Sequence record: PQ423993.1
DNA: 45,658 nucleotides
Reading direction: 5' to 3' (one strand)
Origin: Escherichia phage vB_VIPECOMC04
Position numbers and translations under genes: made by a program. The notes beneath the pieces were generated by a model that saw only the letters and a list, made by a program, of their open reading frames with translations, was not told the origin of the DNA and did not search any database. Every line of letters starts with the position of its first letter. The first letter of the stretch is position 1. Shown here piece after piece: positions 6,677 to 39,235 of this stretch.

Positions 6677-6970
6677 TTAACGGCAACCTCCCTCAGAGTC
6701 GTCAGCACGAGCATCATGATTCGATGCCGTTCTCATAAACAATTTGCCCTTGCGCTGTAATAAGTCCATCGTTACCGCACCTGCGCCTGACTTATTAGGG
6801 CGACGCAGTATGCTAAAGTTCCATACCCTGGCCTTTGTTACGTCTCTGGCGTTACACACCCACAGAGCACCATTTTCTCTTAGTTCCAGTAAATCAGAAA
6901 TGCTGAAATTATTTACCGGGATAAACCCGCTAATGAACTGGAGTTCGCATTGATGTAATTCTTCCATCAC
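6677..6970 (-). CDS. hypothetical protein
   Basis: ORF track. Confidence 0.35.
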   Translation of the reverse strand: MMEELHQCELQFISGFIPVNNFSISDLLELRENGALWVCNARDVTKARVWNFSILRRPNKSGAGAVTMDLLQRKGKLFMRTASNHDARADDSEGGCR

Positions 6971-7158
6971 TTCGCCCCTTTGAATTTAAAATTGTTGCCG
7001 ATGAGTTTTATTTCGTACTCTCGGTAATACGCCGCGTAATCTAACCCGTGCCCCCTGAGTAAGCTAACGACATAAGAACTTCGGTACACTGTCGATTTCT
7101 TTTCAATAATACCTAAGCTACCGTACATCGTTTTCACCAACTGACCCTTCTTAAACAT
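6967..7158 (-). CDS. hypothetical protein (first gene of the leftward transcription unit)
   Basis: ATG at 7156-7158 with GGAGTGAAGG upstream; product MFKKGQLVKT... Confidence 0.45.
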   Translation of the reverse strand: MFKKGQLVKTMYGSLGIIEKKSTVYRSSYVVSLLRGHGLDYAAYYREYEIKLIGNNFKFKGAK

Positions 7159-7192
7159 AACCTTCACTCCTCAGTCTCGTTTCGATAAGTGA

Positions 7193-7221
7193 ATAGTATC
7201 CTATTATGTTGGGGTGTGCAA
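7193..7221 (-). promoter_or_regulatory. sigma70-like promoter (class B) with operator palindrome
   Basis: Minus-strand reading TTGCAC-17-TACTAT; spacer accccaacataatagga is identical to the plus-strand copy at 29936-29952; palindrome GAATAGT-at-CCTATTA at 7191-7206. Confidence 0.55.
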
Positions 7222-7276
7222 GAGAATAGTTACGTTGCCGTTGTTGTGCCTTTATTCTTATTACTTGGTAACTAAA

Positions 7277-7315
7277 GGGCAGGCTTAAGGCCTGCCCGGT
7301 AAGGGTTACATTTTT
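7277..7315. terminator. strong hairpin with T-run, candidate insulating terminator
   Basis: GGGCAGGC-ttaag-GCCTGCCC stem at 7277-7297 flanked by GTAAC/GTTAC, then TTTTT at 7311-7315; lies in the ORF-free divergent control region. Confidence 0.4.
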
Positions 7316-7579
7316 ACGGTTGCGAATCATTCGGCACTTTAAGAAAATCAGATACTTAAGAGATATGCTGTCGATGTGAATAGAGCTTGCCCAGGGCAAC
7401 CGGAGATACTAAGGAAAGTAAAGTTACGATAATTCTTGTGTTCAGTAAACTGCCGCCTAACACTTCGCGTTGGGCGCTCGTTTTCGGCGGGTTTTACAAG
7501 GTGAACAGGAATCAAAGTAACTAAGATATAGAAGCACCTTAAACGAAGATTTTCATAATGTCAATAGGTGTGATTATGT

Positions 7580-7608
7580 TTGATTTCCCATTATTCGCAA
7601 TGTATACT
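7580..7608 (+). promoter_or_regulatory. candidate early promoter
   Basis: TTGATT-17-TATACT about 30 nt upstream of the first plus-strand gene (ATG 7641). Confidence 0.35.
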
Positions 7609-7640
7609 TGATTTCGTTAACTGATAATGAGGGTTTGAGA

Positions 7641-7811
7641 ATGACACAGAATGAGGTAGCTGAGCGTATCGGGGTTACTCGTCGCACACTGAATAACTGG
7701 TTAAAGAGCGGGAAGTTCCCGGATTGTTGTATTCGCATTATGGGTCGCCGTCAGCCTGGTACGTTTGACCCGGAGAAAGTGGAAGCGTGGATTAAGGAGA
7801 ACGTGAAATGA
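7641..7811 (+). CDS. small HTH DNA-binding protein (AlpA/Xis-like)
   Basis: ATG 7641 with GAGGG upstream; VAERIGVTRRTLNNWLKSGKFP is an HTH signature. Confidence 0.5.
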   Translation: MTQNEVAERIGVTRRTLNNWLKSGKFPDCCIRIMGRRQPGTFDPEKVEAWIKENVK

Positions 7812-8041
7812 CCGAGTTCCAGTCACGCGTATTTACGGCAGTCGTTTCGTTAACACGCAAAAAAGGTTCGTGCAGCGTTATCGACTTGCGCCGTAGCTAT
7901 TTTAAGTACTATAGTTCCGCCATTATTGAAGGGTCGTTGAAGGTGCTGGTTAAATCTGGTGTCGTGAAAAATGTTGGCGGGAGATATAGTGCCGTTGCAG
8001 AAGTTCGCGGAATGACCGCTACTTTAGAAGACCTGGAATAA
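7808..8041 (+). CDS. hypothetical protein with C-terminal EDLE tail
   Basis: ORF track; ends ...TATLEDLE, the same tail as the primase/helicase and exonuclease. Confidence 0.45.
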   Translation: MTEFQSRVFTAVVSLTRKKGSCSVIDLRRSYFKYYSSAIIEGSLKVLVKSGVVKNVGGRYSAVAEVRGMTATLEDLE

Positions 8042-8099
8042 AAGAAAGCCCCGACGCGGTGAACGCCGAGGCAAAATTACTTGCTGAAGGAAATACAAC

Positions 8100-10340
8100 A
8101 TGACCGATGTAATTTTATCCTACTCGTGGTCTCGTCGCAACGCGCGGGCAGAGAAAAAGGATATAAACGTCAGAACCACACACACGGCAACACTGGACGA
8201 CCTGAAAGAGTTAATACAGCCGCTTGATGCCGTTCGTGGCGGAATTAACCCTAAGACCGCACCAGGCTACATCACCGCCGCGTGTGACTCAACGCACAGC
8301 ACCGTAAAAGACCCGGAAACAGGTGACTTTAAGCAAGCGCGCAAAGGTTTCTTTTATCGCTGTGACGCGTCTGTAATCAAATCGTCACTTGCGTATCTGG
8401 ACTTCGACAGTGCAACGCCGGAAGAGTATCGGGAAGCGGTGCGCCTGGTTAAGCGCAGCCGCCCAGCGATGTGCCTCTACACTACGGCATCACATACCGA
8501 TGAGTCGCCGCGCTTTCGCGTCGTCATGCCGCTGGCCCACCCGGTTGAAGGGGGTGACATCATCCGTGTTCGGCATGGATTGCTGGAGCACTTCTTCAAA
8601 GGCATGGGTGCGGACCGTAGCGGGTTCACTCTGTCTCAGCCGATGTACCTGCCGCCGGTTGGCTCTACTGTTATCTGGTCGCGCCGTAACGACCTGATTG
8701 ACCCCGACGAGTTACTGGAAGGTATCCCCGCCGTTGATGTTAGCAGCGCATCGGATTACCAGATACCAGAAGAACTGCGCACCGCGTTTACAGCTGCGTT
8801 CGAAGCCCTGGCGTTCGAATACGGCGGCATCATGACCCCACGCGGCCTTAAGATGCCAGCTACACCAGAACACGCAGAGAACTACAGCGACCCGACGCCG
8901 CGCCCAGACGACTTCCTGTTGTGCTTCCCGCGCGCCGGGTACGAAGCACCGAACGTAACCATGATTCACGACACCGACATTACTGCAACAGAAGGCATGT
9001 CACCGAAAGAGGTGTGGAAGTATGCGTGTGACGCTACCGGGCTGCCGTTCAGTGAAGTGGCTGAGGCCATCGGATGGGGTGCGCGGGAGTCCGTTTCATG
9101 CAGCCTGGACGACCTGGAAGATGACGAGGACTCAGAGGGTGACGAGTTACCAGAACCGGTAAAGGCTGATTTCGTCGTAGAAGGGTACATGCCGTCGGAT
9201 TGCATATGGGATATTGTTGGGGAATCCGGTACGTATAAATCATTCTATACGCTTGGGATGATGTACCTGAGCGCCGCCGGATACCGGTTTGCGGGAGCCG
9301 ATACCCAGCGTTGCCACCATTTCTATATTGACGGTGAGGGTGGCGCGACCACACGCACACGTATCGATGCGCTCGCGGCTAAATATGGTGAGGAAGGTAA
9401 AGATTATGTACATGTCATCGACATGGGTGAAGTAGGCAAACTGAAAAGCCTGATCAAGCTAATGCGCGAAACTGCTGGTGACGAGCCAATTGGCATGGTT
9501 GCGTTCGACACACTCAACCAGACACTGGCACTGACGATTGATAAGTTCGACGAGAACAGTTCATCAACGGCAATCGGCATGGGTAAAGTTATCGCCATCC
9601 TGAAAGAAGTGCGTGACGCTACTAAAGCCGCGGTAGGCGTTGTTCACCACACACCGAAGGGTGGAAAGAAAGCCCGTGGTAGCGGGGCGCTGTATGCCGG
9701 TGTTGATGTGGAGCTTACAATTGAGCGCGCAACCGACCGTCAGATAAACGTATACCACTCGAAATTTAAGCACGGGCCCCAACAGAAAACGGTTGGCATG
9801 GTGCTGGAGTCTGTACAGTTCCGTGAAGCCCCGCCGCCGAAAGAGTACCGTGCAGTTGAGTTCCTGGGTAACACAGAGGAATACGGCGCAATCGTAAACC
9901 TGGACTTGCCGGAACCACACAAAGCGCTTGTGCTGATGCCGTGGGGCTTCGAGCCGTTCAAAACTGACGAGGAGAAAGAGCGGGAAGAAGGGCTGACAAA
10001 GGAAGGTAAAGAAAACGTAAAGAATGCTGTAAAACGTGGGAAGGATGAAGGGCGTAAGGAATCAATACTCGCCGCGCTGGAAGACCTGCAACAGTCCGAC
10101 GACACAGGCCGCGGTTTTACCCAACGGCAGATAGTGGCGAACTCAGGCGACCACGCTATCACAAACCACCATCTTGAGAAGATGCTGAAAGAAGGTGAGT
10201 TGATGCTTGGGTGTGATGCCAACGGTGAAGTTATACCGGGCACATACCGGATACCTGAAAAGATGGGTGACAGATTAAGACCGAAGACAATATACGAACC
10301 GAATGGAATGCTGGTGGTGACAGAAGAGGATTTGGAATAG
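8100..10340 (+). CDS. primase-polymerase (AEP-like) fused to a RepA/DnaB-like AAA ATPase
   Basis: N-terminal AEP-like motifs (LDFD, ASHTDES); central Walker A GESGTYKS and Walker-B-like MVAFD; ends ...VVTEEDLE. Confidence 0.7.
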   Translation: MTDVILSYSWSRRNARAEKKDINVRTTHTATLDDLKELIQPLDAVRGGINPKTAPGYITAACDSTHSTVKDPETGDFKQARKGFFYRCDASVIKSSLAYLDFDSATPEEYREAVRLVKRSRPAMCLYTTASHTDESPRFRVVMPLAHPVEGGDIIRVRHGLLEHFFKGMGADRSGFTLSQPMYLPPVGSTVIWSRRNDLIDPDELLEGIPAVDVSSASDYQIPEELRTAFTAAFEALAFEYGGIMTPRGLKMPATPEHAENYSDPTPRPDDFLLCFPRAGYEAPNVTMIHDTDITATEGMSPKEVWKYACDATGLPFSEVAEAIGWGARESVSCSLDDLEDDEDSEGDELPEPVKADFVVEGYMPSDCIWDIVGESGTYKSFYTLGMMYLSAAGYRFAGADTQRCHHFYIDGEGGATTRTRIDALAAKYGEEGKDYVHVIDMGEVGKLKSLIKLMRETAGDEPIGMVAFDTLNQTLALTIDKFDENSSSTAIGMGKVIAILKEVRDATKAAVGVVHHTPKGGKKARGSGALYAGVDVELTIERATDRQINVYHSKFKHGPQQKTVGMVLESVQFREAPPPKEYRAVEFLGNTEEYGAIVNLDLPEPHKALVLMPWGFEPFKTDEEKEREEGLTKEGKENVKNAVKRGKDEGRKESILAALEDLQQSDDTGRGFTQRQIVANSGDHAITNHHLEKMLKEGELMLGCDANGEVIPGTYRIPEKMGDRLRPKTIYEPNGMLVVTEEDLE

Positions 10341-10637: not shown

Positions 10638-10666
10638 TTGACATGTGAATAGTTCGCTATTATAGT
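10638..10666 (+). promoter_or_regulatory. sigma70-like promoter, class A, with operator
   Basis: TTGACA-17-TATAGT; spacer holds the palindrome GAATAGT-tc-GCTATTA (10647-10662); 32 nt upstream of ATG 10698. Confidence 0.6.
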
Positions 10667-13096: not shown

Positions 13097-13101
13097 AGTG
13101 T

Positions 13102-13130
13102 TGACACCTGAATAGTTAGCTATTATAGTT
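13102..13130 (+). promoter_or_regulatory. sigma70-like promoter, class A, with operator
   Basis: TTGACA-17-TATAGT; palindrome GAATAGT-ta-GCTATTA at 13111-13126; upstream of the SSB gene. Confidence 0.6.
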
Positions 13131-13830: not shown

Positions 13831-13856
13831 AAGGCCCTTCATTGGGCCTTTTTACC
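13831..13856 (+). terminator. intrinsic terminator
   Basis: AAGGCCC-ttcatt-GGGCCTT followed by TTTACC. Confidence 0.5.
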
Positions 13857-13865
13857 GGAGTCAGA

Positions 13866-14339
13866 ATGGAACATATAAAAGATTTTCTTAGCTATAACCG
13901 AGAAACCGGAATATTCATATGGATACAACCTACATACAGACGAGGGAAACCTGGAGACATCGCAGGATGCATCAATAGTAGTGGATACTGGCGAATACCT
14001 TATATGGGTAGATATTACATGGCCCACAGGCTCGCTTGGTTTTTCGAGTACGGTGAATGGCCCGAGGGTCCTCTTGACCACATAAACCGTGACAGGTTAG
14101 ACAATAGGATTTCTAACCTAAGGAAAGCAACCACCGCAGATAATGTGCGAAACGCTAAAAATAAGGGGGCTAGAACGGGAGTTAAGGGAGTAGTTAAAAC
14201 CGACAACCGATTTTATGGGCGGGTACATTTTAACTACAAAAGTTATAATGCGGGTAGCTACGGAACTCTTGAAGAAGCAGAAAGCGCTGTAAAGAAATTA
14301 AGAGAAAAATTGCATAAGGAATTTTATTGCCATGACTAG
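13866..14339 (+). CDS. HNH homing endonuclease with AP2 domain
   Basis: HRLAWFFEYGEWPEGPLDHINRDRLDNRISNLR (HNH) followed by an AP2-like segment; abuts the DNA polymerase start. Confidence 0.8.
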   Translation: MEHIKDFLSYNRETGIFIWIQPTYRRGKPGDIAGCINSSGYWRIPYMGRYYMAHRLAWFFEYGEWPEGPLDHINRDRLDNRISNLRKATTADNVRNAKNKGARTGVKGVVKTDNRFYGRVHFNYKSYNAGSYGTLEEAESAVKKLREKLHKEFYCHD

Positions 14340-16530
14340 TTTATTATACCTGGATACCGAGACATTCTCCGAAGCAGACTTAAAGAAAGTCGGGTCGTAT
14401 GCGTATGCGGAGCACCCAACGACAGAGGTTATAATTTGTACATATGCCGTTGATGATGGCCCTGTAGAAATATGGGATTGCACTTCCGAACCTGTAATGC
14501 CGATAAGCCTCTGTGTGGCTCTCCGTAATGTTATGCGTGGGCGTATGAAAATCGTGGGCCATAACTTTTTAATGTTCGACAGGCTCGTCATGAAACACTG
14601 CTGGGACTTTGATATTCCTGTAGGCAACACCATTGATACGATGATTTGGGCGTTTCGTCACGCGCTGCCGGGTTCCCTCGATGCGTTGTGCGAAGTGCTG
14701 GGCGTGTCAGCAGACAACGCGAAAGACAAACGAGGCAAGGCGCTGATTCAGCGTTTCTCTAAACCGACGCCGAAGAACTACAAAATCCGTCGCTACACCG
14801 CTGAAACACACCCGGACGAGTGGGCACTGTTCATCAAATACGCCGTGAGTGACATCACCGCAATGCGTGAAGTCTTCCATAAGCTGCCGCGGTGGGGTAA
14901 CTCCGAGTTAGAAGACCGTGTACTGGAACTGGACCAGTTAATCAACGACCGCGGGTTTAAGGTTGACGTTGCTCTGGCAGAAGCCGCGATTGAAGCTGTG
15001 GAGAAGCACAAGGCACAGTTACAGGAAGAAGCCCAACGCAAATACGGCGGCTCGCTTACCGGAAAGGACTTCCTTCCTATTCTGCGTGAACTTGCCCCAG
15101 CGCACCGCATACACAACGCACAGAAGTCGACGCTTAACGACCTGTTGGCGGACGATGATTTACCGGACGATGCTCGCACGATTATCGAAATGCGCCTCGG
15201 GGCCGCATCCACCGCGTCAACGAAATATAACCCATTGCTGTTGGGCCGCTCATCGGACGACCGCCGCCGGGGTTGTTTACAGTACGGTGGGGCAAAACGC
15301 ACTTTGCGGTGGGCGGGTAAAGGCTTCCAACCACAGAACCTGGCGCGCGGGTACTATCACGATGATGAACTGGATAAAGGCATTTCAGCGTTACTTAAAG
15401 GCCGGGCACACCGCCGTTTTGATGTAGCCAAGCTAACGGCATCGACGGTACGTAGCTGCATCATACCGGAAGTGGGGCATAAGTTTGTTGTTGCCGATTA
15501 CTCTAACGTTGAGGGTCGTGGGCTTGTGTGGTTGGCAGGCGAAGAAACCGCGCTTGATACTTTCCGCGCCGGGTTGGATATTTATTGCGTAACTGCAGGT
15601 AAGATGTTTGGCATGGACCCCGACGATATTAAGAAAAACTTTAAGGAAATCAGACAGATAGGCAAGGCTTGCGAACTGGGCCTCGGTTACGAGGGAGGCG
15701 TCGGAGCATTCGTTACGTTCGCCAAAAACTTAGGCCTCGACCTTATTGAGATGGCTAAAACAATGGACGGTACGTTCCCCGACCACATCTGGGCCGCTAC
15801 CGCACGCGGGTATGAGTGGGCGCGCATCCAGGAAGCCAAGCGCCCCCCGCATCCAGGTGAGAAGGATGACCGACCATCGTATATTCTGGACAAGAAAGTG
15901 TGGCGCACCTGCGACGCAATCAAGCGTATGTGGCGCGAGTCACACCCGGAAACAGTAGCGTTCTGGCGCGACCTCAAAGACGGTATTTTAGCCGCTGTAA
16001 GAAATCCGGGTCGTGAATTTTGGGCGGGGGCGCATCTGCGCAAGAATGGCGAGCGCGCTATCCGAATCTGGAGAACAGTAGAAACCGATTCATCCGGTAG
16101 GAAGGTTCCCGGTTGGTGGTTGTGTATGGAGTTGCCGTCGGGCCGTATCCTCTCGTATCCAGGAATCGGCGTTAGCGTGACAAAAGAAACAGACGAAGAC
16201 GGACGGGTAAACACGAATGTGCGAATCAAGTACCAAGGTGAAAACCAGTTAACCCGCCAATGGACTACCCTGTACACCCACGGCGGCAAAGCCTGCGAAA
16301 ACATTGTTCAGGCGCTGTGCCGTGATTTACTCGCATATGCGATGGTTAATGTTGAGGGTGGCGGGTATCCAATCGTGCTTTCGGTACACGATGAACTGGT
16401 ATGTGAAACTCCAGATACGCCGGATTACACGGTGCCTGAGCTGGAAAAATTAATGTGCACGTTGCCTGAGTGGGCAGAAGGCTTCCCTCTTGTCGCGGAA
16501 GGTAGCGAAATGTACAGATATGCTAAATGA
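14332..16530 (+). CDS. family A DNA polymerase with 3'-5' exonuclease
   Basis: Exo I YLDTETFS; motif A DYSNVEGR; motif B RQIGKACELGLGYEGG; motif C VHDELVCE. Confidence 0.9.
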   Translation: MTSLLYLDTETFSEADLKKVGSYAYAEHPTTEVIICTYAVDDGPVEIWDCTSEPVMPISLCVALRNVMRGRMKIVGHNFLMFDRLVMKHCWDFDIPVGNTIDTMIWAFRHALPGSLDALCEVLGVSADNAKDKRGKALIQRFSKPTPKNYKIRRYTAETHPDEWALFIKYAVSDITAMREVFHKLPRWGNSELEDRVLELDQLINDRGFKVDVALAEAAIEAVEKHKAQLQEEAQRKYGGSLTGKDFLPILRELAPAHRIHNAQKSTLNDLLADDDLPDDARTIIEMRLGAASTASTKYNPLLLGRSSDDRRRGCLQYGGAKRTLRWAGKGFQPQNLARGYYHDDELDKGISALLKGRAHRRFDVAKLTASTVRSCIIPEVGHKFVVADYSNVEGRGLVWLAGEETALDTFRAGLDIYCVTAGKMFGMDPDDIKKNFKEIRQIGKACELGLGYEGGVGAFVTFAKNLGLDLIEMAKTMDGTFPDHIWAATARGYEWARIQEAKRPPHPGEKDDRPSYILDKKVWRTCDAIKRMWRESHPETVAFWRDLKDGILAAVRNPGREFWAGAHLRKNGERAIRIWRTVETDSSGRKVPGWWLCMELPSGRILSYPGIGVSVTKETDEDGRVNTNVRIKYQGENQLTRQWTTLYTHGGKACENIVQALCRDLLAYAMVNVEGGGYPIVLSVHDELVCETPDTPDYTVPELEKLMCTLPEWAEGFPLVAEGSEMYRYAK

Positions 16531-17042
16531 TGATGGGGTGGTTTATGAGAGATTTAATTAATTGGCATGACCATTTCTACTACGAACCTGACACGGGGAA
16601 GATACGATGGAAGTATTCCCCGAGACACAGTATAAACGCCGGAGACGAAGCCGGTAGTCCAAGTAAGAGAGGATACATCTGTATCGTCGTCAGAGGGGTT
16701 AGTTACAGGGCTAATCGTATCGCATGGGGGATGTATAACAATGACCGTTTAGGGCCTGATGATGAAGTAGACCATATAAATCATATCCTGGATGATAATC
16801 GTGCATGCAACCTTCGGAAAGTATCCCGTACTGATAATAACCGAAACGCATCTCGCAGAAAAGATAACAAGTCAGGTATCACTGGTGTGCACTGGAACGC
16901 ACGGGCGGCTAAATGGAAAGCAGGTATATTCGTTGACGGTAAACTTATATTCCCGGGCCACCATGACAATATATTTGACGCGGCTTGTGTACGGAAATCC
17001 GCGATTGTTCGCTACGGCTTTCATGAGAATCACGGAGGTTAG
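16527..17042 (+). CDS. HNH homing endonuclease with AP2 domain
   Basis: HNH core EVDHINHILDDNRACNLR plus AP2-like C-terminus; overlaps the DNA polymerase stop. Confidence 0.8.
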   Translation: MMMGWFMRDLINWHDHFYYEPDTGKIRWKYSPRHSINAGDEAGSPSKRGYICIVVRGVSYRANRIAWGMYNNDRLGPDDEVDHINHILDDNRACNLRKVSRTDNNRNASRRKDNKSGITGVHWNARAAKWKAGIFVDGKLIFPGHHDNIFDAACVRKSAIVRYGFHENHGG

Positions 17043-17410: not shown

Positions 17411-17739
17411 CTAAAGAGGGGCGCATCCAGAAATACGCAAAAGAGCGATTCGAGGCCATTGGTGGCCTCGTTCGTAAATTGTCGTACGAAAACAGAGTGG
17501 GAGCCCCTGACCTGCTGGTAATTCTACCCGGCGGCATCGTCTGGTTCGTCGAGGTTAAGAAAGACGAAAACACGAAGCCAGACCCGCACCAGCTACGGGA
17601 ACATGAGAGATTCCGAAAACGTGGAGTTAATGTTTTTGTCGTTGGTTCGTTTAAACAGGTTGACGCCCTAATAGCATACTATTATAGTTATCACATACCC
17701 CAACAATATAAGGAATTGAGAAATGAAATACGAATATGA
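17407..17739 (+). CDS. VRR-NUC domain nuclease
   Basis: GAPDLLVILPGGIVWFVEVK fits the PD-(D/E)XK VRR-NUC signature; start taken at ATG 17407 within the track ORF. Confidence 0.6.
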   Translation: MTKEGRIQKYAKERFEAIGGLVRKLSYENRVGAPDLLVILPGGIVWFVEVKKDENTKPDPHQLREHERFRKRGVNVFVVGSFKQVDALIAYYYSYHIPQQYKELRNEIRI

Positions 17740-29929: not shown

Positions 29930-29958
29930 TTGCGCACCCCAACATAATAGGATACTAT
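29930..29958 (+). promoter_or_regulatory. sigma70-like promoter (class B) with operator palindrome
   Basis: TTGCGC-17-TACTAT; palindrome TAATAGG-at-ACTATTC at 29945-29960; drives the plus-strand moron cassette. Confidence 0.55.
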
Positions 29959-37822: not shown

Positions 37823-38062
37823 CTATTCCAGAATATTCCTCACGTAATCCTGCAACATGAACACTTTCAGTCTCAGTTGCCGTGCGCATTCGGCGTTCTG
37901 AACGTCGATAGCTAAATCCTCGTCCGCGTCGCTACTTGGCGGTGCCAGTTTGCACGGTGGTTGCATCATCGTCGTATCCGGGGATGGAATTGGCGTTTGC
38001 AACGGCGCGGGACTTGAGCACCCGTAGCACCCTATAACTAAGAGCAATATTGGCAGTCGCAT
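37823..38062 (-). CDS. Rz1-like outer-membrane lipoprotein (o-spanin candidate)
   Basis: Signal peptide with lipobox-like LLVIGC, then proline-rich SPAPLQTPIPSP. Confidence 0.45.
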   Translation of the reverse strand: MRLPILLLVIGCYGCSSPAPLQTPIPSPDTTMMQPPCKLAPPSSDADEDLAIDVQNAECARQLRLKVFMLQDYVRNILE

Positions 38063-38607
38063 TTGAAAAAATCTCCATGTAGCTTCTTGGCAGCTTGCAC
38101 GTAGGCCATGTGTGCGTCGACGGGGGAGTCGAACTGACCGAGATATTTGGTCTTGTTGCGGATTCTTATGTCCGCACGGAATCTGCCGTTCGGGAACCTA
38201 GAAACCCCCTTGAACCCTGTACTATTAGCGGACGTGAGACCAACGTTACGGCTGTTCTCTTGGCTAGTAGCAAGCCTGAGATTTTCTATACGATTGTTGA
38301 GTGGGTTCCCGTCAATGTGGTCTATCTCATATGGTGTCGGAATCGGCCCATTGAAAAGTTCCCATATAAGCCGGTGCGCTTGAAACGCCTTACCCATCCA
38401 TCTAACCTCTATCGTCTGTCGCCGTTTTGCGCCTTTCGGCGTGGTCAGGCACCCTGCCGGGGTTCCTGTTTTATTAGCGAGCTTACTGCTACGCCAGTAA
38501 AGAACCCCATCGTCGTAGTAGAAAGTATCATTCAGTATAGTCATATCCTGGTATCCCGTTTGCATTGCTGATAGCGTCGTATTTGACTCTAACTCTATCA
38601 GCGTCAA
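38038..38607 (-). CDS. HNH homing endonuclease with AP2 domain
   Basis: HRLIWELFNGPIPTPYEIDHIDGNPLNNRIENLR plus AP2-like segment; overlaps both spanin candidates; true start probably internal. Confidence 0.75.
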   Translation of the reverse strand: MTLIELESNTTLSAMQTGYQDMTILNDTFYYDDGVLYWRSSKLANKTGTPAGCLTTPKGAKRRQTIEVRWMGKAFQAHRLIWELFNGPIPTPYEIDHIDGNPLNNRIENLRLATSQENSRNVGLTSANSTGFKGVSRFPNGRFRADIRIRNKTKYLGQFDSPVDAHMAYVQAAKKLHGDFFKCDCQYCS

Positions 38608-38887
38608 ACTTGCAAGATACTTTATTGGGCCTACTTATGTACTTAACGACTTCACGGGTAATCACCTCTGATTTCGTCTTGCCTTCGTTGTCGGCGGCTG
38701 CGGCCTTTGATTCATCCTGCTGCTGCCGTTGTGTTTTCTTCGCTAACTCAGCCTGCGCTTTCTGCTGTTGCTGCGAAACGAGATTCGCCCGGCCTTCATT
38801 CCAGCCGCTGCGGTACTGATAGATGCCGTGTGCGTAAGCCAGGATGATGAAACATGCTCCTGCTACGACAGTTGCTTTAAGATTCAT
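38528..38887 (-). CDS. Rz-like inner-membrane spanin candidate
   Basis: N-terminal TM anchor MNLKATVVAGACFIILAYAHGIY, then a Q/A/K-rich coiled coil. Confidence 0.45.
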   Translation of the reverse strand: MNLKATVVAGACFIILAYAHGIYQYRSGWNEGRANLVSQQQQKAQAELAKKTQRQQQDESKAAAADNEGKTKSEVITREVVKYISRPNKVSCKFDADRVRVKYDAISNANGIPGYDYTE

Positions 38888-39138
38888 GTTTCCCCTTTCT
38901 CGATAAGTAAAGCCCCGCCTTAAAGCGGGGCGCTAGTCCTTATCATTTAAACATAGAAACGGCGTAATCTCAGTAAACCAGTTACTTTTTACACAAGCAA
39001 TAGAGTATGGCCCTTCCGAACGCGTCAGCGTAACTACACTCAGGACTTACGTCCCGCTCCGTTACCTGCCCGCGCCGCGGTCGCTTGTTCATACTTCACA
39101 AGCTCAGGTGGAGCTTAGCACATTTTTAGTGAAAAGTC

Positions 39139-39154
39139 AACTATTCGAATAGTT
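39139..39154. promoter_or_regulatory. perfect 16-bp palindrome built from the operator half-site
   Basis: AACTATTCGAATAGTT; same GAATAGT/ACTATTC half-sites as the promoter operators but in everted order; abuts a TTGACT hexamer on the minus strand. Confidence 0.4.
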
Positions 39155-39206
39155 TATTCCAACGTTTACAATTGAGTGGAATAACTGGAATACGTAAATA
39201 AATAGT

Positions 39207-39235
39207 TTGCGCGCACCAACATAATAGGGTACTAT
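39207..39235 (+). promoter_or_regulatory. sigma70-like promoter (class B) with operator palindrome
   Basis: TTGCGC-17-TACTAT; palindrome TAATAGG-gt-ACTATTC at 39222-39237; 28 nt upstream of the mini-clamp ATG. Confidence 0.55.

Follow-up and report, generated by a model that had tools for sequence, protein, structure and literature searches.

The genome of Escherichia phage vB_VIPECOMC04 (PQ423993.1), analyzed here as a single stretch of 45,658 nt (the window), carries a noncoding gap at positions 7159 to 7640, flanked on one side by the gene that opens a leftward unit and on the other by the rightward early operon. We propose that this gap is a transcription-control region with a cis-acting leader that would govern termination and read-through, a reading for which we consider the case and the counter-case to be about evenly poised. 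The minus strand of the gap carries a promoter, a long covarying hairpin, a conserved core and a hairpin with the features of an intrinsic terminator, which together delimit a predicted noncoding leader RNA of approximately 260 nt (7270 to 7529), both ends being taken from the promoter-to-terminator span. A sister cassette at 39 kb likely gives the gap region its meaning. The window represents the complete or nearly complete genome of a Kagunavirus-like siphophage (Guernseyvirinae), and the Escherichia phages NTEC3, Bas73, and K1ind1 share 90 to 92% identity with its region 6900 to 7900.

An earlier, sequence-only reading of this stretch had described the gap as a divergent control hub, and this description is upheld by one rightward and two leftward promoters, an operator and a terminator, which are conserved in Kagunavirus and Jerseyvirus. 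Its suggestions of a small RNA or of terminators fit the predicted minus-strand unit of about 260 nt, which runs from promoter to terminator and includes a covarying hairpin. It had missed the distal leftward promoter, the 101-nt hairpin and the sister cassette, and the leader unit fills most of the gap.

The gap is noncoding and conserved

The longest plus-strand open reading frames (ORFs) in the gap encode 28 and 45 aa. As the sequence-only reading had it, the gap is free of convincing ORFs: across 44 distinct related sequences, open frames are conserved in neither position nor length, and indels of 17 nt and 1 nt compared to the closest relatives disrupt the reading frames. With no conserved ORF and with frames broken by indels, a coding gap was rejected. 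ORFs have been deposited in the gap of NTEC3 (71 aa; L001 1862-2077) and Bas73 (106 aa; L002 1734-2054), and these are not conserved. Because open frames vary and indels disrupt them, both are probably spurious annotations.

Sequence matching the gap was found in 446 phage records, 301 of which match over at least 80% of its length. The possibility that the region is dispensable in related phages was not borne out, as all 44 IMG/VR loci and all 446 matching records retain noncoding sequence here, the type of sequence being exchangeable. Between Kagunavirus and the Salmonella Jerseyviruses, the gap keeps 70 to 75% nucleotide identity. The adjacent leftward protein is just 32 to 53% identical in most relatives, or undetectable, and the helicase-primase is approximately 64% identical between Kagunavirus and Jerseyvirus. 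Judged from these sequence comparisons, the gap is under selection.

Rfam gave zero matches at gathering thresholds in the whole window and only chance hits up to E = 10 (best sub-threshold E = 1 and 5.3, far below gathering), and searches for generic repeats and k-mer enrichment within the gap returned weak signals only, with 2-copy repeats of 8 to 17 nt at chance level. Neither the gap nor the cassettes were matched in 5,426 complete E. coli genomes, and host mimicry or a prophage origin was rejected on this ground.

A distal promoter precedes a covarying hairpin and a conserved core

A regular-expression match placed a distal leftward promoter, TTGACA-17-TAAGGT, on the minus strand at 7536 to 7564 (7564->7536), with a predicted start at approximately 7529. 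Its -35 box matches the consensus at 6/6 positions and is identical in 27 of 27 sequences of groups A and B among the relatives. The -10 box reads TAAGGT or TAAGTT in these two groups, and 26 of the 27 have a 17-nt spacer. The site has the hexamers and the 16- to 18-nt spacer of a sigma-70 promoter, with T-12, A-11, and T-7 kept. Leader types that are not homologous to this one hold a promoter in the same place (TTGACT-17-TAAGCT, TTGACA-16-TAAAAT, and TTGAAA-18-TATAAT), and a promoter is annotated there in the GenBank record of Jersey.

About 8 nt past the predicted RNA start begins an irregular hairpin of 101 nt (7422 to 7522; 7522->7422 on the minus strand), with a folding energy of -32.9 kcal/mol and a z of -4.95. 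The base of this hairpin is conserved (AGUUAC/GUAACU, UUCA/UGAA, and GUAAR/YUUAC) and its apex is hypervariable, with at least 5 unrelated versions among otherwise ~90%-identical phages, the stem being kept in each. All 27 distinct variants adopt a common fold. In a covariance-model alignment, 91.1% of cells pair, compared to 29 to 48% with slid partners, and double changes occur at 7 pairs. The covariation score is 0.189 versus 0.109 in shuffles, a value reached by none of 500 shuffles. Folds of the minus strand contain 41 G.U cells, at about 5 independent sites, and zero A.C 1x1 mismatches. Up to 3 kb away in both directions, no block shows sequence identity linked to the type of apex, and a protein partner for the variable apex, sought among these neighboring blocks, was rejected for this reason.

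The hairpin is followed by a conserved core, CTCTATTCAC...CTTAAGTATCTGAT...GTGCCG (7330 to 7384; 7384->7330 on the minus strand), which is mostly unpaired. Group A is near-invariant here, and conservation in group B is approximately 85%. All leader types, as well as the 39-kb cassette, share the motif order TCTATT ... AAGTNACTGA ... GCCG. The fold of the whole leader RNA has a z of -3.15.

The leader ends in a predicted terminator on the minus strand

The terminator scan identified a hairpin and tail at 7268 to 7297 on the minus strand (stem 7297->7277; tail TTTAGTTAC, 7276->7268). The arms, 7277-7284 and 7290-7297, pair over 8 bp, 7 of them G-C, around a 5-nt loop (-17.6 kcal/mol, z -4.1), and the stem covaries in relatives, where it reads GGGCAGGC/GCCTGCCC, GGGCAGGT/ACCTGCCC, or GGGTGGGC/GCCCACCC. 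The sequence-only reading had noted a hairpin with a T-run at 7277 to 7315. Its stem at 7277 to 7297 is real, whereas the T-run proved irrelevant: the plus-strand run at 7311 to 7315 begins 14 nt past the stem and makes no terminator tail, and the sequence that directly follows the stem on that strand, GGTAAGGG, is not a U-tract. The tail lies on the minus strand, where TTTAGTTAC has 5 T in 8 and forms an imperfect U-rich tract. In one relative (L025), the stem contains a pair that is G.U on the minus strand and would be A.C on the plus strand. From its stem and tail, the 7277-7297 hairpin is the predicted intrinsic terminator of the minus strand.

A small palindrome, UUGCCC-U-GGGCAA, lies upstream of the core on the same strand (7388 to 7400). 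It had been picked out in the sequence-only reading, and it is indeed present and conserved in close relatives, being degenerate in Jerseyviruses, but its hairpin fold (-6.0 kcal/mol) does not stand out from shuffled sequence, 71 of 200 shuffles being equally good. Its 5' arm (7400->7395) is the best upstream partner of the terminator 5' arm in 8 of the 10 tested variants with a GGGCAGG-type terminator, the pairing comprising 6 to 8 bp at -10 to -12.9 kcal/mol. This pairing is not kept in L005 and L015, where the terminator sequence differs. It counts as one independent observation and may be taken as a weak lead.

Between 7244 and 7245, that is, between the class-I promoter described below and the terminator, the window is without a 17-nt segment (GTGATTCTTCAGGTAGG-like) that is common to most relatives.

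A sister cassette heads the structural operon

The sister cassette (leader 2) lies on the minus strand at 38903 to 39140 (39140->38903) and heads the spanin/scaffold/capsid/tail operon. Its promoter, TTGACT-17-TAAGCT (39140->39112), is the only other occurrence of the distal promoter type in the window. It is followed on the same strand by a hairpin of 21 nt (39103->39083), a second hairpin of 65 nt (39080->39016), the TCTATTG core and a clean terminator with tail (38931->38912; -17.2 kcal/mol). The ribosome-binding site (RBS) of an Rz-like spanin gene, the first gene of the structural operon, lies within 25 nt of this terminator, with the ATG at 38887. The interval from terminator to first gene is too short for another promoter, and polymerases that transcribe the structural operon from the visible promoter must therefore pass the terminator.

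The sister leader has a median identity of 98.3% over 236 nt in 40 IMG/VR loci, the spanins of which are 62 to 86% identical. In a diverged, Jersey-type version, the hairpins and the terminator are kept through compensating changes. For hairpin 2, 7 of the 16 pairs are compensatory, and 96.7% of cells pair versus 23 to 46% when the partners are slid. This hairpin also has two tandem G.U pairs, conserved in 19 of 21 sequences. Read from the opposite strand, or as DNA, they would turn into A.C mismatches, and the sister structure is therefore taken to be a leftward RNA.

In 15 relatives, the gap upstream of the helix-turn-helix (HTH) gene holds a leader that is 77 to 89% identical over 145 nt to the sister cassette. 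Some genomes hold a sister-type cassette at both loci, and K1H has yet another leader type at the gap locus. All cassette matches fall in contigs of approximately 41 to 45 kb from this phage group. Because a sister-type leader occupies the gap locus in relatives, the cassettes are interchangeable units of one functional class, and because they are exchangeable, the same read-through role would apply in the gap. A 37-codon ORF deposited within leader 2 (Bas73_0007; 36 aa, L049 5304-5414) loses its ATG in other leader types and is probably a misannotation.

Immediately upstream of the sister -35 box we also observed an inverted repeat, TTATTCC-N17-GGAATAA (39154 to 39184), and a palindrome, ACTATTCGAATAGT (39140 to 39153). 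The inverted repeat, a possible activator site, persists even in the diverged version of the Jersey type.

Two promoter families share a palindromic operator

The proximal leftward promoter, TTGCAC-17-TACTAT (7193 to 7221; 7221->7193 on the minus strand), had been proposed in the sequence-only reading and was confirmed as a member of a family of near-identical repeats of 29 to 31 nt, here called class I. Further copies lie at 29930-29958 (+), at 39207-39235 (+), and near 6226->6198 (-), and each copy is found approximately 40 nt upstream of an RBS and ATG. The 29930-29958 copy precedes a superinfection-immunity-like gene and a metallophosphatase, and the 39207-39235 copy precedes a 173-aa gene. 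The class-I promoter of the gap is conserved in groups A and C; in group B, the hexamers are conserved.

Overlapping the class-I -10 box is a palindromic operator, AATAGTATCCTATT (7192 to 7205, both strands). The GAATAG motifs that had been suggested as operator half-sites fared unequally: the one at 7191 is half of this palindrome, while those at 7224 and 7378 stand alone, without a palindromic partner. The lone GAATAG at 7378 falls within the conserved core, in the motif kept in every leader type. A pattern search of the window for AATAG-N4-CTATT returned 8 exact sites and 3 with one mismatch (2432, 6197, 6355, 7192, 10604, 10648, 13111, 17670, 29946, 39132, and 39223) against an expectation of 0.96, and 0 of 100 shuffles reached 11. 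Most copies overlap or adjoin predicted promoters. The operator is evident genome-wide only and did not emerge from repeat searches inside the gap. This distribution suggests that one regulator acts on many promoters through AATAG-N4-CTATT.

A candidate for the operator-binding protein is encoded on the minus strand by a 69-aa XRE/HTH_3 (Cro/CI-like) gene (10573->10367) with its own terminator (10369->10349). This gene, which is absent from the 100-aa ORF list, adjoins two operator sites, and two tandem TTGACATGTGAATAGT promoters (10594 and 10638) point away from it. As in Cro/CI-type systems, the 14-bp palindrome covers a -10 box, recurs at promoters and has an XRE/HTH_3 gene beside two of its sites. 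Unlike in those systems, the cognate protein here is only a candidate and the phages are virulent; to our knowledge, lysogeny is not known for them. Plus-strand promoters of a second family, TTGACAnnTGAATAGTTnGCTATTATAGT, carry the operator in the spacer (10638-10666, 13101-13129, and 17660-17688). They precede recombination/replication gene blocks and are also found in Bas73 and K1H.

The rightward early promoter, TTGATT-17-TATACT (7580 to 7608, plus strand), which the sequence-only reading had listed as a candidate, held up in the promoter scan with 9/12 matches. Its hexamers are invariant in 27 relatives, and group C has TTGCTT-17-TATACT. The distal leftward promoter adjoins it back-to-back, with 15 bp from one -35 box to the other.

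Neighboring genes and other features of the window

The first leftward gene starts at an ATG at 7158 on the minus strand, with the RBS GAGGAG at 7173->7168 (feature 7156 to 7173). Relatives start at the same ATGTTTAAGAAGGG; the ORF list instead uses an upstream GTG at 7167. On the other side of the gap, the RBS GAGGG and the ATG of a 56-aa HTH_17 gene lie at 7630 to 7643 on the plus strand, the gene beginning at 7641. Its product matches Pfam HTH_17 (E = 2e-7), and it is followed in the rightward operon by genes for a 77-aa protein and an AAA_25 helicase-primase. In L004 and L013, an extra gene of approximately 70 aa lies between the rightward promoter and the HTH gene. The leftward unit in the well-annotated Bas73 consists of about 13 small genes, two holins, an endolysin, further small genes, terminase, portal, and head-morphogenesis genes, and the gene-strand layout of the window is the same as that of Bas73.

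In the interval from the 77-aa gene to the start of the helicase-primase lies a strong hairpin (8048 to 8072; -17.2 kcal/mol). Its T-tract is on the minus strand, and the hairpin is kept in all relatives examined. A promoter-like site on the minus strand lies at 8112 to 8140, within the start of the helicase-primase gene. The two could delimit an antisense RNA of approximately 60 to 70 nt over the helicase-primase RBS. The window also contains three HNH endonuclease genes (13842-14339, 16527-17042, and 38038-38607), one of which separates the two spanin genes in the late operon.

A proposed role in termination and read-through

In the scheme we propose, the rightward early promoter would drive the HTH_17/helicase-primase operon, and the strong sigma-70-type leftward promoter (7564->7536) would start a noncoding RNA near 7529. 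This RNA would fold at once into the 101-nt hairpin, followed by the conserved core and then by the terminator (7297->7277) with its U-tract. Past the terminator, the operator-controlled class-I promoter (7221->7193) would start the first leftward gene. The leader cassette would set the share of transcription from the distal promoter that gets past the terminator, and read-through would enter the leftward unit, with its small genes, holins, endolysin, terminase, and portal. Terminators farther along in both leftward units, at 6341->6320 and 35971->35950, would also have to be passed. The sequence comparisons support the anatomy well, together with its conservation, the covariation, the strand sense and the presence of an exchangeable sister cassette before the late operon; synthesis of the RNA, its end point and its control over read-through are inferred. 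The closest analogues are RNA elements that render RNA polymerase resistant to termination (HK022 put, EAR, and canT), and the idea could alternatively take the shape of a factor-dependent attenuator.

Several points weigh against this scheme. The start of the leader RNA, its end and the read-through are all predicted. The distal -10 box, TAAGGT, matches the consensus at just 3/6 positions, under the 4/6 threshold of the promoter scan. In the A-type apex alone, G.U pairs number 13 versus 15, and the overall asymmetry is not decisive for the strand. Expression of the first leftward genes can proceed from the class-I promoter, independently of the leader. Imperfections in the U-tracts UUUAGUUAC and UUUACUUAU could mean that the terminators are simply leaky. 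Jersey/SETP13-type phages (L016, L017, L033, and L040) are without the leader-1 terminator module, and the leaders of group C and K1H at the gap locus end in a GC hairpin without a U-tract; for these reasons, the terminator is not universal to the cassette at this locus. The deletion of the terminator module is flanked by GCCG(A/T)AGATTC repeats, and L020 has both flanking modules, which suggests that the module was lost by recombination between these repeats. Finally, neither sequence nor Rfam similarity was found between the leaders and put, EAR, or other families.

A more specific form of the proposal, which we put forward tentatively and hold to be somewhat improbable, is that Guernseyvirinae time or secure late transcription with RNA-only, put-like antiterminator cassettes. 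These would render the RNA polymerase of E. coli or Salmonella resistant to the leader terminator and to terminators downstream, with two interchangeable cassettes heading both leftward late units. HK022 put, Bacillus EAR, and Tn916 canT are RNA-only processive antiterminators (cited in PMC11658703). As in these systems, a structured RNA lies right after the promoter and would act on its own polymerase, here with a hairpin approximately 8 nt past the predicted start. Long operons and terminators (7297, 6341, and others) follow downstream, and a phage antiterminator protein could not be identified. The sister cassette resembles put further in having two adjacent stem-loops directly past the start. 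The put RNA works in cis with no need for a phage protein and is sensitive to the zinc domain of the RNA polymerase beta' subunit. In contrast to put, which has two stem-loops of about 70 nt in total with specific features, leader 1 has a single 101-nt hairpin and leader 2 has hairpins of 21 and 65 nt. There is no similarity to put in sequence or model, Rfam seeming to hold no put model. Moreover, the phage is a virulent siphophage rather than lambdoid, and the terminator lies inside the leader.

Classical terminator/antiterminator attenuators offer another comparison, in that the segment 7400->7395 can pair either with its neighbor or with the terminator 5' arm. They differ from the gap in that the alternative pairing here is 6 to 8 bp, seen in one independent observation, without a known ligand, leader peptide, or binding protein.

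Alternative explanations for the leaders

We consider it unlikely that the 260-nt RNA is itself the product, i.e., a stand-alone, trans-acting small RNA that works by base pairing or protein binding on the host or the phage, with read-through being incidental. Such an RNA would account for the unit having its own promoter and terminator and a stable 5' hairpin, for the conserved, largely unpaired core with its CU-rich stretches (e.g., CUUUCCUUAGUAUCUCC), and for the downstream gene having a promoter of its own. It would not account for the sister cassette, which directly precedes an RBS and essential genes, nor for the Jersey-type leaders without a terminator and the group C leaders without a U-tract. 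Furthermore, once promoter repeats were removed, 11-mer complementarity to the rest of the genome was at chance (expected 10), and no match was found in the E. coli genomes.

Long 5' hairpins protect mRNAs, and the gap could be passive architecture, composed of promoters, an operator, and a leaky insulating terminator, with the long hairpin serving as a 5' stabilizer or RNase III site and exerting no control over the polymerase. The imperfect U-tracts agree with this, as does the hypervariable apex, the type of which is unlinked to the neighboring genes and the sequence of which would seem to be unimportant. We nevertheless regard this explanation as decidedly unlikely, since it leaves unexplained the core sequence common to all leader types, the high conservation of the sister leader (98% over 236 nt) next to far more divergent proteins, and the placement of a terminator between the sole visible promoter and essential late genes.

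We give little credence to a protein-dependent antitermination of the Q, AlpA, or N kind, in which a phage protein would join the polymerase at both leaders or their promoters and take it past the terminators. The gap does resemble the lambda PR'-6S RNA-tR'/Q and Pseudomonas PalpB-tB/AlpA modules in its constitutive-looking promoter, a leader of approximately 200 to 260 nt and an intrinsic terminator before lysis or structural genes (PMC9371919). The obvious candidate for the protein would be the 56-aa HTH_17 protein; its gene comes first among the early genes and diverges from the leader promoter. Leader 1 contains a -10-like element, TATCTT (approximately +2 to +7), which reads TAACTT in group B. 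Leader 2, however, has no such element after the start, and no -10-like pause element is conserved in both leaders. The leader RNA is also conserved and covarying, a structure that Q-type systems do not require. PHROGs and Pfam searches of 10 candidate early proteins, a subset of the ORFs of the window, returned no known protein antiterminator and neither a Q nor an N family. The Bas73 annotation likewise lists none, and no Q/AlpA-family protein was identified. The HTH of AlpA is C-terminal (PMC9371919), whereas that of the HTH_17 protein is N-terminal, with no extra segment for an exit-channel ring, and AlpA/Q chains were absent among the PDB matches. With the wrong domain order and no structural-database match, HTH_17 was rejected as an AlpA-like antiterminator.

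Finally, a replication origin beside the helicase-primase operon, promoter-primed or hairpin-containing, as the sequence-only reading had allowed for, is hardly credible. The gap adjoins replication genes, is AT-rich at 7505 to 7620, contains a large inverted repeat and lies close to a GC-skew minimum near 7 kb, but the skew change coincides with the switch of gene strand, iterons are absent, no DnaA-box-like cluster is visible in the gap on reading the sequence, the conserved G.U pairs point to pairing in RNA rather than DNA, and a homologous cassette stands before capsid genes 31 kb away. A P4-like ori was rejected, as TGTTCACC, the P4-type motif, occurs just once in the gap (7500-7507) and the helicase is AAA_25 and not P4 alpha-like.

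Implications for late transcription in Guernseyvirinae

Phage therapy and biocontrol make wide use of Kagunaviruses and Jerseyviruses. In the literature, we found no description of the gap region or of the way in which Kagunavirus or Jerseyvirus, relying on the host polymerase alone, schedule transcription, and the only Kagunavirus transcriptome paper found reports genes alone. Public RNA-seq of an infection time course exists for the Kagunavirus vB_Eco_K1B4 (PRJNA939978/PRJCA028359). At a minimum, the analysis would correct spurious ORF annotations in many deposited genomes and define two RNA families absent from Rfam. It also provides a wiring diagram for these phages, with two promoter families that have a palindromic operator in common, a Cro-like regulator gene beside two of the operator sites, and two structured, terminator-ended leader cassettes that head the lysis, packaging, and structural units. 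This arrangement suggests a control of late-transcription read-through that is so far undescribed. If the leaders control read-through, they would represent a new processive-antitermination or attenuation RNA, as well as a compact, portable promoter-leader-terminator part for synthetic control. If the put-like reading is true, they would constitute a new class of antiterminator RNA in virulent siphophages, unrelated in sequence to put, EAR, and canT.

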